DNA of 64,000 bases from Minisyncoccota bacterium. GTDB lineage: Bacteria; Patescibacteriota; Minisyncoccia; UBA6257; JAGOQP01. A model generated the notes under the pieces. It was not told where the DNA came from. It ran no database searches and saw only the letters and a list, made by a program, of their open reading frames with translations. Location of the stretch: the NCBI GenBank assembly GCA_017991375.1, contig JAGOQP010000004.1, forward strand, positions 6,499-70,498. Reading direction: 5' to 3'. The translations under genes and the position numbers were made by a program. This document shows, piece by piece, positions 8,135-16,359 of the stretch; within the stretch, counting starts at the first letter, position 1; the number at the start of each line of letters is the position of its first letter.

Positions 8135-8974
8135 TTACGCCGTCTTTTGTTTCTTAATACGCAAGAATGATTTAGGGCCACCCGTCCCTACTCGTTCAAT
8201 AATCTTCTTATCAACTAATCGTTGGATATCATACCTCAATGTCCGGTCACTAATCCCTGGAAGTATGTCTTGGATGTCTTTTATGTGGCATAATGTGCGC
8301 TTTTTTAACAAATCAACAATCATCTCCTGTCTTTCAGAAAAATATGCCGCTTTTGGTATTTCATCTACACTTTTGGCCATACTTATTGCCGGACTTTTTT
8401 GTGTCTCTGTTATTTTGGCAGTGTTTATGCCGTCTTTTTCAATATTCTCATTGCCGGACTTTTTATCTTCTTTTATATATGTTGCCGGACTTTTTTGCGA
8501 TGCGTCTATATCAATAGATTTTACGCCACTATTTATCATTTTCTCATTGCCGGACTTTTGTGCTTTTGTTTTCACTTCTTCATCTTTCTCTTCGGATATG
8601 TGCGCAATCATTTTCGCGAACTCCGAAAATATCATAGGTGGTTTTGAAAACATTTCTTCTATAAGAATTCTTTCTTTGCTCCCCTTAGCAACTGTTTCCG
8701 CTTTCTCATACACCATATCCGAGAGGGTTTTTTTAAGCCCGTTTATTTCCCTGAGCAAAACCCCCGCATTGACACTACTTATTTCCCCCACCTCTTGGGT
8801 CAAGCGAACAGCATATTCAAGTTCAGCTAAGGTATCTACCGTTTTTGACCCCATATACGAAAGTGCGACATCTTCAAGATACTTTTGGAGCTGTGGACGA
8901 GAAATATGGGCCGCCACTCGGAACACGGCCCACACCACCTCAAACGATCGTTGTTTAAAAAAATCTGAGGGCAT
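8135..8974 (-). CDS. DNA-binding protein with C-terminal DeoR-type winged-helix HTH and internal short peptide repeats
   Basis: The C-terminus ERQEMIVDLLKKRTLCHIKDIQDILPGISDRTLRYDIQRLVDKKIIERVG is a typical DeoR/wHTH domain. The middle region has repeated KSGNE / QKSPA peptides, encoded by a 4x DNA repeat (ttgccggacttt). The overlapping plus-strand ORF 7983..8981 is low-complexity antisense. Confidence 0.5.
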   Translation of the reverse strand: MPSDFFKQRSFEVVWAVFRVAAHISRPQLQKYLEDVALSYMGSKTVDTLAELEYAVRLTQEVGEISSVNAGVLLREINGLKKTLSDMVYEKAETVAKGSKERILIEEMFSKPPMIFSEFAKMIAHISEEKDEEVKTKAQKSGNEKMINSGVKSIDIDASQKSPATYIKEDKKSGNENIEKDGINTAKITETQKSPAISMAKSVDEIPKAAYFSERQEMIVDLLKKRTLCHIKDIQDILPGISDRTLRYDIQRLVDKKIIERVGTGGPKSFLRIKKQKTA

Positions 8975-9060
8975 AAGATGATCATTAATCGTTAACTATT
9001 AACAACAGGACTGATACTAAAGTACTCTTTGAACGATAACCTCATGCTGATAAACCAGTA

Positions 9061-9541
9061 AAACAAATACTTTTAGGAAGCGGGAAGGTGGGCAAACCAC
9101 CTTCCCATATTTGAACAGAAGCTTCTTACTCTTTTCTTCCTCGAGCGCTTTACAGACCACGATGTATTCAAGATCGTCCGTAGCCTCCGGCTCGTGAAGA
9201 AGTATTGAAAGAGCTTTGGCCTAGTTCGCTGTCGGCTATGACTTGGGTTGGTTTGTTGGTGGCACTTTTGCCTTTTCCTTGTCTGACGTGCCAGCTTCCG
9301 CCTGCGAAATTTCTGGCATATGAAGTCGCATGCCGGTCACGACATCGAGCCCGCCGCTCAAGCTGCACAGACAGGTAAAGCGACCGTGGTCGTCTTGTGG
9401 GAACATTTCTGCCCCACACCGAGGGCATGTCGGCCCGCGCCCATGACGACGCATGTACTGATCAGTTTCATCCCAGTACCCCATGCGACACCTCCTTTGT
9501 TTTGTTATTAGTTTTGAAGCTTCCTAAAAGTACTTGTTTTA
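9061..9541. mobile_element. IR-bounded GC-rich insertion (MITE/IS-remnant-like)
   Basis: The left end aaaacaaatacttttaggaagc (9061..9082) and the right end gcttcctaaaagtacttgtttt (9520..9541) are inverted repeats with 21/22 matches. The interior is about 55% GC against a ~40% background. A strong hairpin, gggaaggtgg-gcaaa-ccaccttccc, sits just inside the left IR. Confidence 0.4.
9236..9484 (-). CDS. small zinc-ribbon-like protein carried on the IR-bounded GC-rich element
   Basis: 82 aa: MGYWDETDQYMRRHGRGPTCPRCGAEMFPQDDHGRFTCLCS..., with a CxxC ... CxC arrangement. A strong SD (aaggaggt) sits 5 nt upstream of the ATG on the minus strand. GC-rich codon usage is unlike the neighbouring genes. 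Confidence 0.45.
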   Translation of the reverse strand: MGYWDETDQYMRRHGRGPTCPRCGAEMFPQDDHGRFTCLCSLSGGLDVVTGMRLHMPEISQAEAGTSDKEKAKVPPTNQPKS

Positions 9542-9840: not shown

Positions 9841-9878
9841 TTGACCCCTTTTTTCACGATCGTGAAAAAAGGGGTCAA
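9841..9878. repeat. 38-bp perfect palindrome, copy 1 (TTGACCCCTTTTTTCACGATCGTGAAAAAAGGGGTCAA)
   Basis: Exact palindrome. It has the 5' flank tcatcacccat, which is shared with copy 3. It lies about 50 nt upstream of a TGnTATACT extended -10. Confidence 0.9.
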
Positions 9879-9918: not shown

Positions 9919-10040
9919 TGTGATATACTTTTTAGTATCATGAGAACATTGGCAGAAAATGGTGCGCGCGCCAACACGGTGTGTCAGACATACGTGACCC
10001 CGTAGCATGTTAACGTTCCGCCCCGATGGGCGGTTTTTGT
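9919..10040 (+). ncRNA. candidate small transcript / leader: extended -10 promoter (tgaTATACT, 9921..9929) to intrinsic terminator (10018..10040)
   Basis: A TGnTATACT extended -10 element is followed about 100 nt later by ccgccc-cgat-gggcgg plus tttttgtt. The transcript would contain a 22-codon ORF (MRTLAENGARANTVCQTYVTP*) with no SD. It ends 50 nt before the 10092 gene. Confidence 0.3.
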
Positions 10041-10091
10041 TAATAAAGTCACGCCTCCATTCACTGCTCTATTATAAGTAACACAACATAT

Positions 10092-10661
10092 ATGTTTGAA
10101 GGCGCACAACAAAGCGGAGTCGCTCCGCTATCGCCCACTCCGCAATCACAAACAAAACGATTGTGGAAATTTGTCGGCATGTTTGTCGGGATTATCATTA
10201 TCGCCGCAGGTATTTATTACGGATGGGAGTATTATCTAAGCCCATCGGCGCGCGGGCGCATAGATGCCAGCACTATGCAAAAAAACTACGAACAATTTGC
10301 GCAACAAAAAGCTCAATATGAAGAAGCGATGAAGAACGATACTTATGGAGGGAAAACACCAGAGGAAACGCTTTCTCTGTTTATTTCAGCCCTTGAAAAA
10401 GGCGATGTCGATTTGGCAAGTAGATATTTTCTTATAGGAGAGAAAATTAGCCAGAGCGAATGGCGCGACGGCATACAAAAAATGAAGGACGCAGCACAGT
10501 TGGGATTTATAATAAATGATATAAAGTCATCTGAATTATTGGAAAGGTCGGAAATGCTTAATTACGCAATATTTAGAACAACAAATAAGGAATCGGGGCC
10601 TCATGACATATCGCTTAAACTCAATACGTATTCAAATATTTGGAAAATAGAAAGTTTATAG
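10092..10661 (+). CDS. hypothetical membrane-anchored protein (single N-terminal TM)
   Basis: 189 aa with one N-terminal TM segment (FVGMFVGIIIIAAGIYYGW) and a soluble C-terminal domain. No recognisable motif. It is probably co-transcribed with the nuclease gene. Confidence 0.5.
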   Translation: MFEGAQQSGVAPLSPTPQSQTKRLWKFVGMFVGIIIIAAGIYYGWEYYLSPSARGRIDASTMQKNYEQFAQQKAQYEEAMKNDTYGGKTPEETLSLFISALEKGDVDLASRYFLIGEKISQSEWRDGIQKMKDAAQLGFIINDIKSSELLERSEMLNYAIFRTTNKESGPHDISLKLNTYSNIWKIESL

Positions 10662-10704: not shown

Positions 10705-13700
10705 ATGCACTCTATTAATTCAAAAAGAGCGTTTTTTGGAGCCCTGGTACTCACTGTGTTATCGGGGCTTTTTTGTTCTCATCCAGCACTCGCCTATCAA
10801 CCACAGACACACCGCTTTATTACCGAGCAAGGCATATCCCTCTATAACAAAAGCCACCCCGATGCTCCTATTTCAGAAAGCGCGATATCGTTTATGACCG
10901 ACGGAGCGCGACGAGAAGACGATCCCCTGCGATGGTTAAACCATTTCTACGATCCGATAAGCAAGAAGGGGCTGAGTCACAACGGAGCGATTGACCCCCT
11001 TTTTCAATTTGGTACATGGGAATCATCAAAGCTGTGGGCACAAGACGAACAGAACCAAAGTCGTATCGTATACTCACCCCTTATCGCGACGATTTTATCT
11101 AGCATCCAACAAAAGCAAGTTGAAAAATTTTTTCCCACATCAATATTTACCTGGGACCGCGCCATTACATATTGGGTAGAAGGAAACATTGAAATGGCTA
11201 TGGTAACGCTCGGTCACGTACTTCATCTTACGCAAGACGCCTCTGTCCCCGACCATACCAGAAACGATCCACATGTTTCCGGAAGTCCTTATGAAGATTT
11301 TGTTGGAAAATCAAATGTATTAAAAACGAATAGCAGTATCATTTCTTTGGCAAAAGAACAGCACAAACCGCTTTCATCCCTTGAGAACGCGTTTGATCAG
11401 ATAGCTCTTTATTCAAATAATAATTTCTACAGTAAAGATACCATTGGCATACAAAGTGGATATGAAGATCCACAGCCAGATTTTTTTCAAAAGGAAGGAA
11501 CGAAATACTTCGGTATTAAAAATGGCATAACAAAAGATTACAAACTATACAAAAGTCTTTTGGGGAAAAGCTATTTCTTAACAAATAATTCATTAATTAC
11601 ATTAGCAGATGAAGATGTCCTCTCCGATTATTGGTCTCTTCTTGGTCCAAAATCAATAGCGAATACAGCTGGGGTAATTGAGTTATTTTTTAAAGAAGCT
11701 CGAGCGGCACAGCGTAATGCCTCTATTAGCCACGAAAAATCATTTTTTGCTCGAATTGTAGACGCCGCAAAAGGAGCTATTATCGACTTATTCTCATCGG
11801 CAACAAATCAAGACGAGGAAATTATCACCATTCCAATCTCAAACACCTCGCCAACTCCGAGCGTAAGCCACCAAGCCACGCCAACACCTTCCAAAACCGT
11901 TGCGCCGACAAAATCGCCAACTCCTTCGCAACCACTAATCACAACATTTCCCACTCGCGCGCGTGTACTGAGAATTATTGATGGAGATACTATTGTACTT
12001 GAAAATAATATAACCGTGCGATATCTGGGAATTGATGCTCCCGAACTGGAGGATAGCACAACAAAGAGTGGGTGTTTGGCGCAAGAATCAAAACAGCGCA
12101 ATACAACACTTGTTAACGGAAAAACAATTTCTCTTGAGTACAGCGGCGAGAAAACCGATTCATTCGGACGATTACTTGCTTATGTCTCTGTCGACAACGC
12201 GCTGGTAAATCAACAACTAGTCCGCGAGGGGTTGGCGTATGCGTATAACTTCAACCACCCTCATCCAAAGGAAATGGTTTTCTCGTCTGCTCAAGAAGCG
12301 GCGCGAAAAGATAAGATTGGGTTATGGGGATCTTCATGCGCACCCACGCCGACGCCATCTCCCTCATCAACACCAAAAATAACTCAAAAGACAACAAAAA
12401 CATCCGCTCCGTCGTGCTCGCTTATTTCCTCTCAAACCCCGTCACATAATCAACTTATTATAAACGAAGTCGCATGGATGGGATCTCCCACAAGCGCCAA
12501 TGACGAATGGATTGAGTTAAAAAACATAGGATCTTTTCCTATTACATTATCGGGATGGTCGCTTGCCACTCAAGATGGGAATCTCCGTATTGATCTTTCA
12601 GAATCAAAGCGACTTGTTATACCTCCTGACCAGTTTGTATTACTCGAACGAACAAATGACGCAAGCGTTCCTACTATCACTGCCGATATTATTTATAGTG
12701 GGGCTCTTTCAAATTCCAACGAGCGTCTTATGCTCTTTGATCCCTCATGCGCTCTTATAGACGACGCGCTCGCGGGATCATCATGGCCAGCTGGGGATAA
12801 CGCGACAAAGCGAACAATGGAACGCGCCCAATCTGGATTTGGATGGCACACATCGCAAGAAAGCGGCGGGACGCCAGGGAGAGAAAATTCATATCAATCT
12901 TTTGGCTCGGGCGGTGGGGGAGGGTCATCGGGGACATCGCCTTCTCCATCGTCATCGCCTACCCCGTCACCATCAGCGTCGCCCTCTCCGTCTCCGACAC
13001 CAACAACGCTACCAAACGTGCGCATCAATGAAATCATGTATAACCCAGCAGGGGCTGATGATGATCACGAATGGATAGAGATATATAACGAAGGATCAAT
13101 TGCTTTTGATGTAACGTCTTTACGTCTTATTGAAAACGAAACGGCGCATATAACTTCCGCAATCGGGCAAACCACTATCGCTCCATTAGAATACGCTATT
13201 ATCGCCGACGACGTAGATACCTTTTTGACTGATCACCCTGGATTTACTGCTCCCGTATTTGATAGTTCTTTTTCTCTGAGCAACGAGGGAGAGTCCCTTT
13301 CTCTTTCATATGACAATCAAATAGTACACAGCGTACCCTATCAAGCTACGTGGGGAGCAAATGGCGATACATCATCGCTTCAATTTATGAATCCGGGATG
13401 GTACGCCTACCAACCGACGCCCGGAAAAGAAAACACGCCCTCACAAGAAATCACATCAGACCCAATATCCGCGTCGACACATATACTAATCAGCGAAATA
13501 CAGGTCGCGGGGGCATCTCCTGATGATGAATTTATTGAACTATACAACCCCACCGATTCATTCATATCACTCCGTGATTATTCCATACAATACATCAGTG
13601 GACGCGCGGAGACACTTTCTGATCCTTATAAGAAAAATTTTCCCGATGATGATCTTATTGCCCCTCATGGGTTTTATTTGCTAGCAAACGGGGGTGGGTT

Positions 13701-15363
13701 ATTTGCTCAAAAAGCCGACATGACATGGAATAGCTTTTCTCTTTCGGGAGAATCAAAGGGAGGAATTATCGTTCTTGTTGCTACCACCACGCCCATCACC
13801 ACACTGGCCACCTATCCCATTATTGACCAAATCGCCTACGGAACACCAATTCTTCAGCCATCAGCAGCGCCACTCCCCGATCCGAGCATGAGCATTGAAC
13901 GAAACGCCCTTATTTCAACAAAATGCTTCATCGCACAAGGCGCCTACCTTTTTAGCGGAAATGGATGCGACACAGACGCAACAAGTGATTTCATAGTCAA
14001 TGAAAATCCTTTTCCACAAGGGTCATCCAATTTAGCAGAACCCAGATCGGGACCAGGATCCCCTATATCATTTGAAGCGTTATATGATCCGAGTACATTT
14101 GTGCTCTCACTCTCATGGATGCCTGCTGACGAAAATAGCTATTATGTTCCAGAAAAATCCATAACCACGAATCCATCTGATGGTTTTATTTCTCTAGGAA
14201 CTACCACTGACTTAACAAGTCAAGCACGAATGATAGACATTGGCTTAGATTACACCATACAAGTTACCGCATATGATGCCGATGGATTTCCTTCTGCACC
14301 GGCGACAACAACTATTTCCATGCCGGGAATGCTTACTCATCTTTATTTTTATGAAACATCTCCGGGATCGGAAGCATATGTTCTTGAGCCAATATTCAAA
14401 ACCTATCCATTCGTTATTGATCCAAACATAAAAGAAGATATCCCCCACTGGAGAGCACTCGCATTTTTTCTTGATCAGCCAACTATATCAGTTATGCCGC
14501 AATATCCGTACGGTAGTATTGAAGGCATAAGTGGCGGGATGCAAATAACCCACCCCACTTGTATAAATCCTGATGGGACCATAGTTACTCAAGCAGTGAC
14601 TTTTCCCGACACGGCTGGTATGTGTGGAAGTGGTGGAGGAATTTTCAACTCAACGTATCCATACGCATTACTTGAAGATAATCGCGTTCGCCTTCCAGTG
14701 GCGCCAGACACTGCCGCTCAAATTACTCCAACGTCTACCGTTATTGTCGCGTTCTTCACCTCGGGAAAATCAACTAACGGCGACGGACGTTATCCTGAAT
14801 TCTTACGTGTAGTGGTCGATCGATTTCCCGTCTCTTTAGGAGAGCCCCCAGAACCACTACCACCAACACCCCCTGTTATTACCACCACTGCCGATAATTT
14901 TGATCCAATCCGTGAGAAATTAGTTGTAACATGGGATGATTCGTCCGATCCCGACTCACTTGATCGTTATATCGCTTATGAATTTCGCGGCGGCGCCTCT
15001 ACTCAACCCATAACCGATTACCCGTGGTTGCCGGCCGTACGCAGTATTGATGGATCAACGTATGTAGAACCAAGCATAGAGGCGCGCCAAGGAGAAACAT
15101 ATGTTATTCATATGCGCGCTGTTGATGAAGACGGGCATTATTCTGATGTTTCCACTATACCTATTTCTATTCCAGCTACAGAGATGCTATTAACGGCGCC
15201 GCTGTTGTTTTCTGCGCCTCCGTTACTGGATGACAAAAATGTGAGTAGCGCATCCAGCACTGACGAATCTATTGTCCAACCAACAACCCCATCTGAGACG
15301 CTACCAGAAAATCCAGCAACCACGCCGGCGCAAAACTCAACAGAAACAGAGGACAATGTATGA
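10705..15363 (+). CDS. giant secreted multidomain nuclease: Zn-dependent PLC/S1-P1-like N-domain + staphylococcal-nuclease (SNase) domain + three lamin-tail domains
   Basis: 1552 aa with a signal peptide. The N-domain has WLNHFYDP...LGHVLHLTQDASVPDHT, matching the zinc ligands of PLC / S1-P1 nucleases. The SNase domain is VLRIIDGDTIVL...VRYLGIDAPE...GRLLAYV...NQQLVREGLAYAY. Three LTDs follow (LIINEVAWMG..DEWIELKN; VRINEIMYNPAG..HEWIEIYN; ILISEIQVAG..DEFIELYN). The domains are separated by PSPSPTPT linkers. Confidence 0.8.
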   Translation: MHSINSKRAFFGALVLTVLSGLFCSHPALAYQPQTHRFITEQGISLYNKSHPDAPISESAISFMTDGARREDDPLRWLNHFYDPISKKGLSHNGAIDPLFQFGTWESSKLWAQDEQNQSRIVYSPLIATILSSIQQKQVEKFFPTSIFTWDRAITYWVEGNIEMAMVTLGHVLHLTQDASVPDHTRNDPHVSGSPYEDFVGKSNVLKTNSSIISLAKEQHKPLSSLENAFDQIALYSNNNFYSKDTIGIQSGYEDPQPDFFQKEGTKYFGIKNGITKDYKLYKSLLGKSYFLTNNSLITLADEDVLSDYWSLLGPKSIANTAGVIELFFKEARAAQRNASISHEKSFFARIVDAAKGAIIDLFSSATNQDEEIITIPISNTSPTPSVSHQATPTPSKTVAPTKSPTPSQPLITTFPTRARVLRIIDGDTIVLENNITVRYLGIDAPELEDSTTKSGCLAQESKQRNTTLVNGKTISLEYSGEKTDSFGRLLAYVSVDNALVNQQLVREGLAYAYNFNHPHPKEMVFSSAQEAARKDKIGLWGSSCAPTPTPSPSSTPKITQKTTKTSAPSCSLISSQTPSHNQLIINEVAWMGSPTSANDEWIELKNIGSFPITLSGWSLATQDGNLRIDLSESKRLVIPPDQFVLLERTNDASVPTITADIIYSGALSNSNERLMLFDPSCALIDDALAGSSWPAGDNATKRTMERAQSGFGWHTSQESGGTPGRENSYQSFGSGGGGGSSGTSPSPSSSPTPSPSASPSPSPTPTTLPNVRINEIMYNPAGADDDHEWIEIYNEGSIAFDVTSLRLIENETAHITSAIGQTTIAPLEYAIIADDVDTFLTDHPGFTAPVFDSSFSLSNEGESLSLSYDNQIVHSVPYQATWGANGDTSSLQFMNPGWYAYQPTPGKENTPSQEITSDPISASTHILISEIQVAGASPDDEFIELYNPTDSFISLRDYSIQYISGRAETLSDPYKKNFPDDDLIAPHGFYLLANGGGLFAQKADMTWNSFSLSGESKGGIIVLVATTTPITTLATYPIIDQIAYGTPILQPSAAPLPDPSMSIERNALISTKCFIAQGAYLFSGNGCDTDATSDFIVNENPFPQGSSNLAEPRSGPGSPISFEALYDPSTFVLSLSWMPADENSYYVPEKSITTNPSDGFISLGTTTDLTSQARMIDIGLDYTIQVTAYDADGFPSAPATTTISMPGMLTHLYFYETSPGSEAYVLEPIFKTYPFVIDPNIKEDIPHWRALAFFLDQPTISVMPQYPYGSIEGISGGMQITHPTCINPDGTIVTQAVTFPDTAGMCGSGGGIFNSTYPYALLEDNRVRLPVAPDTAAQITPTSTVIVAFFTSGKSTNGDGRYPEFLRVVVDRFPVSLGEPPEPLPPTPPVITTTADNFDPIREKLVVTWDDSSDPDSLDRYIAYEFRGGASTQPITDYPWLPAVRSIDGSTYVEPSIEARQGETYVIHMRAVDEDGHYSDVSTIPISIPATEMLLTAPLLFSAPPLLDDKNVSSASSTDESIVQPTTPSETLPENPATTPAQNSTETEDNV

Positions 15364-15419: not shown

Positions 15420-15457
15420 TTGACCCCTTTTTTCACGATCGTGAAAAAAGGGGTCAA
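15420..15457. repeat. 38-bp perfect palindrome, copy 2
   Basis: Identical to copy 1 over all 38 bp. It lies between the nuclease stop (15363) and the 15528 gene. Confidence 0.9.
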
Positions 15458-15527: not shown

Positions 15528-16091
15528 ATGATTTACGCACATTCCGCTTGTTATAAATATAAACACAAATACTCGGCATCAATAGCACTTCTTAAATTAC
15601 TTATCGGCTGTGGGCATGTTTCGCTTGATGAATTTTTAAAAAACTCCAACAAAAATTTAACTAAAGACCAATTGTTAAAAAACCGCAAAGCGTATCACAA
15701 AATGATACATAAGTTACACCAAGAGGGGCTCGTCGAAAAAATAGACGACAGAAGAAAATCGCCAGTGAAAGTGGTGTCTGGCAAATTATCTACCCTTAAG
15801 GAAAAGCTACTCAAAAAAGACTTGGCCCAACATACATTGAGAGATGGGGGTCAAAAAAGCATGTTTCCAATAATTGTTGCGTTTGATATACCAGAAAAAT
15901 ATAGAACAAAAAGAGATTTCCTTAGACGATTACTCCAGTCATTAGGGTATCAGATGATACAAAAGAGTGTGTGGATCGGCTATTATAAACTGTCAAAAGA
16001 TTTCATGGACGAGTTAAGAGAAATTAGAATTCTTCCTTATGTTGACGTATTTTCAATAAACCGATCAGGGACTATTAGAAAGTACCAATAA
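15528..16091 (+). CDS. solo winged-helix + Cas2/VapD-like domain protein (putative regulator or nuclease; no cas neighbourhood)
   Basis: 187 aa. The N-terminal half looks like a wHTH (LDEFLKNSNKNLTKDQLLKNRKAYHKMIHKLHQEGLVEKID). The C-terminal half, MFPIIVAFDIPEKYRTKRDFLRRLLQSLGYQMIQKSVWIGYY, follows the Cas2 beta1-alpha1-beta2 pattern (compare YDITDD..RNRVAEFLKKMGKRVQYSVFEC). The first codon in the track may not be the true start. Confidence 0.5.
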   Translation: MIYAHSACYKYKHKYSASIALLKLLIGCGHVSLDEFLKNSNKNLTKDQLLKNRKAYHKMIHKLHQEGLVEKIDDRRKSPVKVVSGKLSTLKEKLLKKDLAQHTLRDGGQKSMFPIIVAFDIPEKYRTKRDFLRRLLQSLGYQMIQKSVWIGYYKLSKDFMDELREIRILPYVDVFSINRSGTIRKYQ

Positions 16092-16129
16092 TCACCACCA
16101 TACTCTGCTTATTTTGTGTCATCACCCAT

Positions 16130-16167
16130 TTGACCCCTTTTTTCACGATCGTGAAAAAAGGGGTCAA
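16130..16167. repeat. 38-bp perfect palindrome, copy 3
   Basis: Identical 38 bp plus the shared 5' flank tcatcacccat, as in copy 1. It lies 39 nt after the stop of the 15528..16091 gene. Confidence 0.9.
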
Positions 16168-16359
16168 AGAATACACATAACACGCATAAAGCGGTGCGAT
16201 ATAAAACTGGTGGGTATAGCAACTATTTCTGTTCCGATAATAAGCGTAAGAAAACACACTCTAGATTTTTTTGAGTGTTGTTCACTTGCGATATTTCCAC
16301 ACGTTTTAGAGAACAGATTTTGATAACACTGGAAAAAACGATTATATTTTACTCCTTGT

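Follow-up and report, generated by a model that had tools for sequence, protein, structure and literature searches.

A gene at 15528..16091 (+ strand) of the 64-kb stretch of DNA analysed here (the window) encodes a protein of 187 aa in which a winged helix-turn-helix (wHTH) domain is fused to a Cas2-like domain, and the gene lies between two copies of a long, perfect palindrome. The locus raises the question of what such a protein does beside such repeats: whether it is a displaced part of a CRISPR system, a nuclease that acts on DNA or RNA, or a DNA-binding regulator for which the palindromes are the sites.

Domain architecture and predicted fold

The open reading frame is present as quoted in an earlier note on this DNA, with the ORF list and the Pfam and NCBIfam matches describing a wHTH plus Cas2-like (PaaX_M) protein. 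The top Pfam match, over approximately residues 115–182, is PaaX_M (PF20803; E 7e-15; 55.3 bits, cut-off 24), which Pfam titles "PaaX protein central Cas2-like domain". Of the models of Cas2 itself, CRISPR_Cas2 of Pfam is matched marginally (25.0 bits, cut-off 23.8) and TIGR01573 cas2 at 30.5 bits (cut-off 24.5), with both matches confined to the first 40–46 model positions and the PaaX_M score 30 bits above the scores of the Cas2 models.

An AlphaFold model computed from a 120-sequence alignment predicts the Cas2-like domain (~residues 110–185; 15855..16082, + strand) with a pLDDT of 94–98 and a beta-alpha-beta-beta-alpha-beta(-beta) topology, and gives a winged helix at moderate confidence for residues 16–105 (approximate limits of the N-terminal DNA-binding domain; 15573..15842, + strand). 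A Foldseek comparison against the PDB ranks E. coli PaaX (8a39) top, with 184 columns aligned over both domains, and places MarR/MecI regulators and about a dozen Cas2 structures after it; the fold matches of the N-domain are to MarR, PadR, MecI, and AspA. The earlier proposal of a wHTH-like N-domain ahead of a C-terminal half of Cas2 pattern is therefore upheld by Pfam, AlphaFold, and Foldseek, and the Cas2-type ferredoxin fold on which that proposal was staked is what both AlphaFold and Foldseek give. The further suggestion of an unusual non-CRISPR use of the Cas2 fold does not hold, with the domain already catalogued as the PaaX-type domain PF20803 and the family numbering thousands of members, two of which are named "DNA-binding transcriptional regulator PaaX" in JGI/IMG.

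All 120 relatives sampled match PaaX_M. Across these relatives, residues D120, P122, E123, and S147 of the Cas2-like domain are invariant and R129, R133, Q145, and W149 are kept in >93%, with conservation reaching 2.63 bits per column in the C-domain compared with 1.76 in the winged helix; the N-domain varies across the family and matches scattered wHTH families of Pfam. D120 is the conserved Asp at the end of strand 1, as in Cas2, and is retained in the 187-aa protein within the motif IVAFDIPE, where E. coli PaaX has LLLLSEGL. That a PaaX-like protein has retained the Cas2 Asp appears to be new, and a domain that served dimerisation alone would need less conservation than this invariant Asp with its conserved polar neighbours.

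The protein ends 5 residues past its Cas2-like domain, and Pfam finds no match to the PaaX_C effector domain, and no sequence match to the PaaX N-domain model, either in it or in the 120 relatives. An hhalign comparison of the family profile with E. coli PaaX is weak (probability 8.7%), extending over 33 columns of the recognition helix and wing. As part of the local-repressor explanation developed below, and with the same confidence as that explanation as a whole, we regard the protein as probably a two-domain, effector-less relative of the PaaX repressor.

Relationship to CRISPR-associated Cas2

NCBI lists an identical protein, from a Candidatus Pacebacteria MAG, under the name "CRISPR-associated endonuclease Cas2". 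On the strength of this label, and of the Cas2 model cut-offs that are passed, marginally, the gene could be read as a real CRISPR-associated cas2 that has been displaced or has degenerated. We consider this extremely improbable, given the higher score of PaaX_M and the restriction of the Cas2 matches to the start of the models, as well as the fused N-terminal winged helix in a fixed architecture of ~190 aa that is common to thousands of relatives. The genomic context also speaks against it. No CRISPR-like or tandem array is found in the 64-kb window and no CRISPR array in 80 homologous loci, and a PADLOC search of the 51 window ORFs gives no strong cas match among the best 25 of 90 families listed; the matches listed are housekeeping cross-matches (UvrD-like, cysteine desulfurase, PolA) and the weak Cas2 matches of the 187-aa protein itself. 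The earlier statement that the 64 kb contain neither an array nor cas1 agrees with these searches, for cas1 within the PADLOC families listed. The NCBI name is thus probably wrong, and as members of the family pass the Cas2 cut-offs and carry the Cas2 label in CPR genomes, they could inflate counts of orphan cas genes.

Elsewhere in the window, a 21-nt repeat with the core ATTGCCGGACTTTTT occurs four times at 8379–8560, at spacings of 65, 31, and 65, within a 279-aa ORF (8135–8974, - strand) that has a DeoR-type HTH at its end. Rather than a CRISPR array, the copies probably represent a peptide motif that is repeated in the protein.

A large family in CPR/Patescibacteria

A profile search of 1.84 billion cluster representatives returned 5,948 proteins with E<=1e-3, of which 690 reach E<=1e-30, corresponding to a family of at least 5,900 clusters at 50% identity, with the best 150 matches all 174–225 aa in length and aligned end to end. 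Scanning with a single peptide pattern, in one genome per species, gave 389 loci, the best 80 of which all derive from CPR/Patescibacteria MAGs; several of these genomes carry two or three paralogues, which are ~30% identical. No family member was found in IMG/VR, among the INPHARED phages, or among the PLSDB plasmids, and there is thus no sign of a mobile-element carrier.

No conserved partner gene is found across the 81 loci (the 80 homologous loci and the window), with the window gene standing alone between its two palindromes. Subgroups of the family keep a stable synteny, including gyrB upstream of the family gene in 14 loci, and relatives are found next to gyrB, thrS, trxB, glutaredoxin, and DsbA-like genes, among others, a range of neighbours that suggests a family with no single universal target. 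We found no paper that ties PaaX-like proteins to CPR.

Palindromes in the window

The 38-bp perfect palindrome TTGACCCCTTTTTTCACGATCGTGAAAAAAGGGGTCAA is present in exactly three copies in 64 kb, where none is expected in shuffled sequence, and all three sites lie within 6.3 kb. Copy 1 (9841..9878) is located 214 bp upstream of an operon encoding a 189-aa protein and a secreted nuclease. Copy 2, the upstream site (15420..15457), follows the stop of the nuclease gene by 57 bp and precedes the ATG of the family gene by 70 bp, and copy 3, the downstream site (16130..16167), lies 38 bp past the stop codon of the family gene, between convergent genes. The gene is therefore sandwiched between copies 2 and 3, as the earlier note had it. 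The sites form perfect 19–20-bp stems and read TTGACC-N26-GGTCAA around the centre CACGATCGTG, with copies 1 and 3 having 11 further 5' bases in common (TCATCACCCAT).

A relaxed search of the 64-kb window for half-sites or a CACGRYCGTG centre revealed no further real site, and a scan of JGI metagenomes for the exact palindrome gave no match. Rfam assigns no family in the window at the gathering threshold and merely chance hairpin matches on the palindrome at a permissive one, and no tRNA is found in the window. Between 9500 and 16500, promoter-like sites in a sigma-70 scan are no commoner than in shuffles, and a terminator scan does not call the palindromes as terminators. Promoter occlusion is not apparent in the window, where 70 bp separate the end of the upstream site from the ATG and a -10 box is missing from the edge of the site. 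As we read the sequence, copy 1 precedes the best promoter-like element of the nuclease operon by ~45–85 bp, a position that is not classical for a repressor.

Two other interpretations of the palindrome were rejected. A parS-like reading of TTTCACG..CGTGAAA fails because the inner part is not conserved in other loci, and the idea of a promoter within the palindrome (TTTACT-N17-TATGGT) fits a 34-bp class of sites, not the window site.

Contigs from three independent short-read assemblies of the same organism in other samples (L082, L083, and L084) were found via the HtrA neighbour, in a search for strain variants with another arrangement or an empty site. All three end inside or at copy 3 (window 16129–16168), from which it follows that assemblies are broken by the repeated perfect palindrome. 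An arm in L082 differs by one base (T to A), perhaps through a real SNP, perhaps through an error at the end of the contig.

The window also contains a segment (9059–9541) flanked by 23-bp inverted repeats (9059–9081 and 9519–9541), in which GC reaches 0.585 compared with 0.35–0.45 around it. Inside this segment lies an 82-aa Cys-rich ORF (9236–9484, - strand) with 28 uncharacterised homologues that are mostly ~121 aa long, share 48–71% identity, and belong to no Pfam family; the window copy, which is shorter than these homologues, may be truncated or frameshifted.

Association of the palindromes with the gene family

The 80 homologous loci and the window (840 kb) were scanned for CGRYCG centres with paired arms, with a site defined by the pairing of at least 12 of 17 arm positions. 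Arm pairing is bimodal: background CGRYCG sites pair at 25% of positions, and a separate class comprises 150 sites of an arms-ACGRYCGT-arms design, 131 of which (87%) lie inside a family gene or <=150 bp from one. At least one site is present in 74 of the 81 loci, with an upstream site in 67, a downstream site in 64, and sites on both sides in 58. These counts are conservative, since the scan missed the sites of L002 and L012, which were scored site-less and carry the same design with a CTGATCAG centre, and five sites of L052 that fall below its threshold. The centre of the upstream site is typically found 25–30 bp before the start codon, a distance that is approximate because the starts are those of the longest ORF, and the centre of the downstream site typically 17–46 bp past the stop, with the site itself starting within ~40 bp of the stop in most loci.

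Whilst the (A)CGRYCG(T) centre is kept everywhere, the arms are genome-specific: their identity is 0.81 for the site pair of a single locus, 0.37 from locus to locus, and 0.27–0.70 among paralogues of the same genome. High identity within a locus and low identity between loci and paralogues indicate that each gene copy carries its own cognate site pair. Furthermore, protein divergence and arm divergence are correlated (r 0.29, reached by 0 of 500 permutations); a partial Mantel test shows both domains tracking the arms equally, and the signal is not specific to the winged helix. The gene that follows the downstream site is convergent in 30 loci and co-directional in 26 (56 loci), and the presence of the site whichever strand this gene occupies argues that it is part of the module rather than an operator of a neighbour's promoter; in the convergent position (30 of the 56) there is no promoter that would need an operator.

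It is very unlikely that the palindromes are generic genome repeats, such as terminators or REP-like elements, placed next to this gene by coincidence. They are strong hairpins in intergenic DNA, and three independent short-read assemblies break at copy 3, both of which suit a generic repeat. However, 87% of the 150 sites are at one gene family in 81 loci with ~ten intergenic regions each, the arms are paralogue-specific, and the 64 kb hold three copies only. The suggestion of the earlier note that the protein is a candidate to recognise the palindrome is thereby strongly supported by comparative genomics, with sites of the same design in 74 of the 81 loci. The bracketing of a family gene by its own cognate, predicted operators with a conserved ACGRYCGT core appears to be new. 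CPR/Patescibacteria have few recognisable regulators, and here a very large family is found in which each member has a predicted binding site adjacent to it, with the protein-site pairs providing ready material for deriving DNA-recognition rules and for defining small local regulons.

Two loci carry unusual forms of the site. In L052, five copies of one site (2450–2660, 3422, and 4128) read AACCTCAC, an asymmetric spacer with CAACGATCGT, then GTGAGGTT; three of them are in tandem, 89–98 bp apart, in intergenic DNA ~800 bp upstream of the family gene, one is at the promoter of the gene with TATAAT directly after it, and one lies past the stop. L014 begins with a 142-bp perfect palindrome (1–142, 71-bp arms) centred on the GCGATCGC site at the contig start, which is most likely a fold-back assembly artefact seeded by a real palindrome.

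Double-stranded site or RNA hairpin

The symmetry of the sites is uneven. It is near absolute at the centre and at arm positions 12–16 (97–99% of sites), compared with about 70–85% at positions 5–11, and whole classes of sites (those of Nomurabacteria-type loci, and all five in L052) combine symmetric outer half-sites with an asymmetric spacer, for example GTTTAC-TATACTA-ACGGCCGT-CACTTCA-GTAAAC. The existence of these classes implies that a continuous stem is not required. On the gene strand, mismatches in the arms are not biased towards G-U (71 G.T vs 94 A.C), and no U-tract follows the hairpins. A -10-like hexamer begins 15–19 nt from the centre, towards the gene, in 17 of the 64 upstream sites compared with 2 of the 64 downstream ones, and TATAAT-like boxes abut or lie inside many upstream sites. 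With -10 boxes at their gene-side edge, those upstream sites overlap the promoter and are probably not transcribed. About a third of all sites, including all three in the window, are perfect through the spacer, which is far above chance and far exceeds what contact with the centre and outer half-sites alone would predict.

Taken together, the pattern favours a double-stranded protein-binding site over a hairpin. The alternative is action at the level of RNA, in which the palindromes would be transcribed as 5' and 3' hairpins and bound or cleaved by the protein as a Cas2/VapD-type endoribonuclease, controlling the stability or termination of its own mRNA and of the nuclease operon mRNA. The Cas2 fold with its Asp retained, the perfect stems in the window and in about a third of all sites, and the closeness of the downstream site to the stop codon in most loci are consistent with this proposal. 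It is nevertheless unlikely as a whole, with no excess of G-U wobble pairs on the gene strand, many sites incapable of a continuous stem, edge -10 boxes implying that upstream sites are not transcribed, neither a U-tract nor a call from the terminator scan, and only chance hairpin matches from Rfam. The HEPN/Cas2-type toxin or RNase envisaged in the earlier note finds nothing in its favour here, there being no partner gene, no G-U bias, and many sites that cannot form hairpins.

The neighbouring nuclease operon

The operon bracketed by copies 1 and 2 begins with the gene of a membrane-anchored protein of 189 aa (10092..10661, + strand), which has no Pfam match and has homologues beside family members in 6 loci. 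The second gene (10705..15363, + strand) encodes a secreted protein of 1552 aa, in which Pfam finds an SNase domain (residues 437–541) and three lamin-tail domains (LTD). The first ~380 residues of this protein have no Pfam match, yet are the conserved part in the homologues of L025, L036, and L070. The 1552-aa protein has homologues close to family members in four loci (L025, L036, L068, and L070) and partial matches in L031 and L044. Other neighbours in the window include HtrA and a cysteine desulfurase.

Homologues of the 189-aa/nuclease operon adjoin family members in 8 of the 81 loci, in three arrangements: co-directional with the family gene and upstream of it, which is the order seen in the window, co-directional and downstream (L068, L017, and L076), or divergent (L025 and L036). 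The operon of L025 is bracketed by two sites, like that of the window, and is inverted between the palindromes relative to it. Such recurrent linkage through rearrangements supports, short of proof, the local regulation of this operon, of which the 189-aa gene is a probable target. The role of regulator of the nuclease operon that the earlier note had offered as one option is plausible in view of this linkage. If correct, the regulon in the window would be a secreted SNase/lamin-tail-domain nuclease, which may matter for an epibiotic lifestyle.

A leader RNA upstream of the 189-aa gene shows no conservation across six loci, and in the window this leader folds no better than shuffles (z -1.3). 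A hairpin of canonical terminator-like form at 10018–10043 (+ strand), CCGCCCCGATGGGCGG then TTTTTGTT, precedes the 189-aa gene by ~50 bp and follows an extended -10-like element, TGaTATACT, near 9920. It could be a short leader or a small RNA; the region has no Rfam match and is not conserved in five other loci.

Predicted function: repressor or nuclease

The near-constant bracketing of the gene by its own long palindromic sites argues for a local repressor rather than a CRISPR component, and we propose, as the explanation that on balance is probably correct, that the 187-aa protein is an autoregulatory local repressor with the 38-bp palindromes as its cognate operators. The palindromes would be bound as double-stranded DNA, with the Cas2-like domain predicted to form a dimer that sits over the conserved ACGRYCGT centre and the two variable winged helices reading the outer 6-bp half-sites (TTGACC / GGTCAA in the window genome). 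This model is suggested by the parallel between a variable winged helix and variable half-sites on the one hand, and a conserved core and conserved centre on the other. Binding of the upstream site would repress the protein's own promoter. The downstream and third sites, which bracket the gene and the 189-aa/secreted-nuclease operon, would probably serve as auxiliary operators, acting through looping or as a roadblock, and so place the nuclease operon under local control; for the downstream site, looping, roadblock, and insulation are guesses.

The features that a repressor of this kind does not readily explain are the downstream sites, the perfect spacers, the lack of an evident promoter overlap in the window, and the invariant Asp, and it is because of these that both the RNA-hairpin alternative and a nuclease or recombination alternative are kept alive. 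According to the latter, the protein would either cut or nick DNA at specific sites or serve as an accessory factor in recombination. Its winged helices would position an active Cas2-like dimer over CGRYCG, with the gene and its flanking palindromes forming a self-contained, possibly selfish or rearrangement-promoting module, like a RAYT gene between REPs. The residue at the Cas2 catalytic position is an invariant Asp with conserved polar residues nearby, and PaaX lacks that Asp; moreover, the two-sided bracketing is tight whatever the neighbours, a third of the sites are perfect palindromes, and the nuclease operon of L025 is inverted between two palindromes relative to the window. A XerC/D-like tyrosine recombinase gene (~300 aa) also lies directly upstream, on the same strand, in five loci (L013, L063, and three others), which may reflect shared synteny alone.

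Against this, the paralogues are divergent (~30% identical) and the synteny of subgroups is stable, as with gyrB upstream in 14 loci, so that recent mobility is not seen. No member occurs in the IMG/VR, phage, or plasmid collections, the sites are local (three in 64 kb, within 6.3 kb) rather than scattered as REPs are, HUH/Tyr and recombinase motifs are missing from the protein, and asymmetric spacers with upstream -10 boxes suit an operator better. We therefore judge the nuclease or recombination explanation, taken as a whole, to be unlikely. Its more specific form, in which the Cas2-like domain is catalytically active as a palindrome-specific nuclease or nickase that cuts at the CGRYCG centre, with the winged helices as address readers, we likewise hold to be a rather slim prospect. 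Were it true, the gene would represent a kind of self-bracketed module for DNA processing not recognised before, one that drives inversion, excision, or gene conversion locally in CPR genomes, and its product a free-living functional cousin of the Cas2 of CRISPR adaptation.

Comparison with known systems

Of the systems that combine a small gene with a Cas2-like fold or with flanking palindromes, VapD/Cas2-like toxins differ from the 187-aa family, which has no conserved antitoxin partner gene in 81 loci. REPtrons, in which a RAYT gene is flanked by REPs, resemble it in having a single-copy gene between its own genome-specific palindromes, with few extra copies nearby. Unlike REPtrons, the family has no HUH/Y1 enzyme (by Pfam, including the 120 relatives), and its sites are few and local, not hundreds genome-wide, with many of them not hairpin-competent.

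The Lrp/AsnC regulators follow the same logic as the 187-aa protein, in that an HTH that binds DNA is joined to a small oligomerisation domain (RAM) of beta-alpha-beta-beta-alpha-beta topology. With Cas2 the 187-aa protein has in common the ferredoxin-like fold and the strand-1 Asp, and it differs from Cas2 in its fusion to a DNA-binding domain and in its context, with no array in the window or the 80 loci and no strong cas match in the window.

PaaX is the phenylacetyl-CoA-responsive repressor of E. coli and Pseudomonas (PDB 8a39, 3l09), and the 187-aa protein repeats its order of an N-terminal winged helix followed by the Cas2-like central domain PF20803. The operator of E. coli PaaX reads TGATTC-N27-GAATCA, and PaaX represses its own gene by excluding RNA polymerase (review PMC9493321). 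The geometry of this operator is closely similar to that of the predicted operator in the window, TTGACC-N26-GGTCAA, and autorepression of the same kind is suggested by the overlap of upstream site and promoter in many relatives of the 187-aa protein, which is not clear in the window. In contrast to PaaX, the 187-aa protein lacks the C-terminal helical effector (phenylacetyl-CoA) domain PaaX_C and has no paa genes near its own, its sites, which lie on either side of the gene, contain a conserved ACGRYCGT centre in addition, and it keeps the Cas2 Asp that is lost in E. coli PaaX, where Ser-Glu-Gly-Leu is found. The family thus stands between PaaX and Cas2, with the architecture of the former and the Asp of the latter intact, and bears on how the Cas2 fold moves between the roles of nuclease and regulator.
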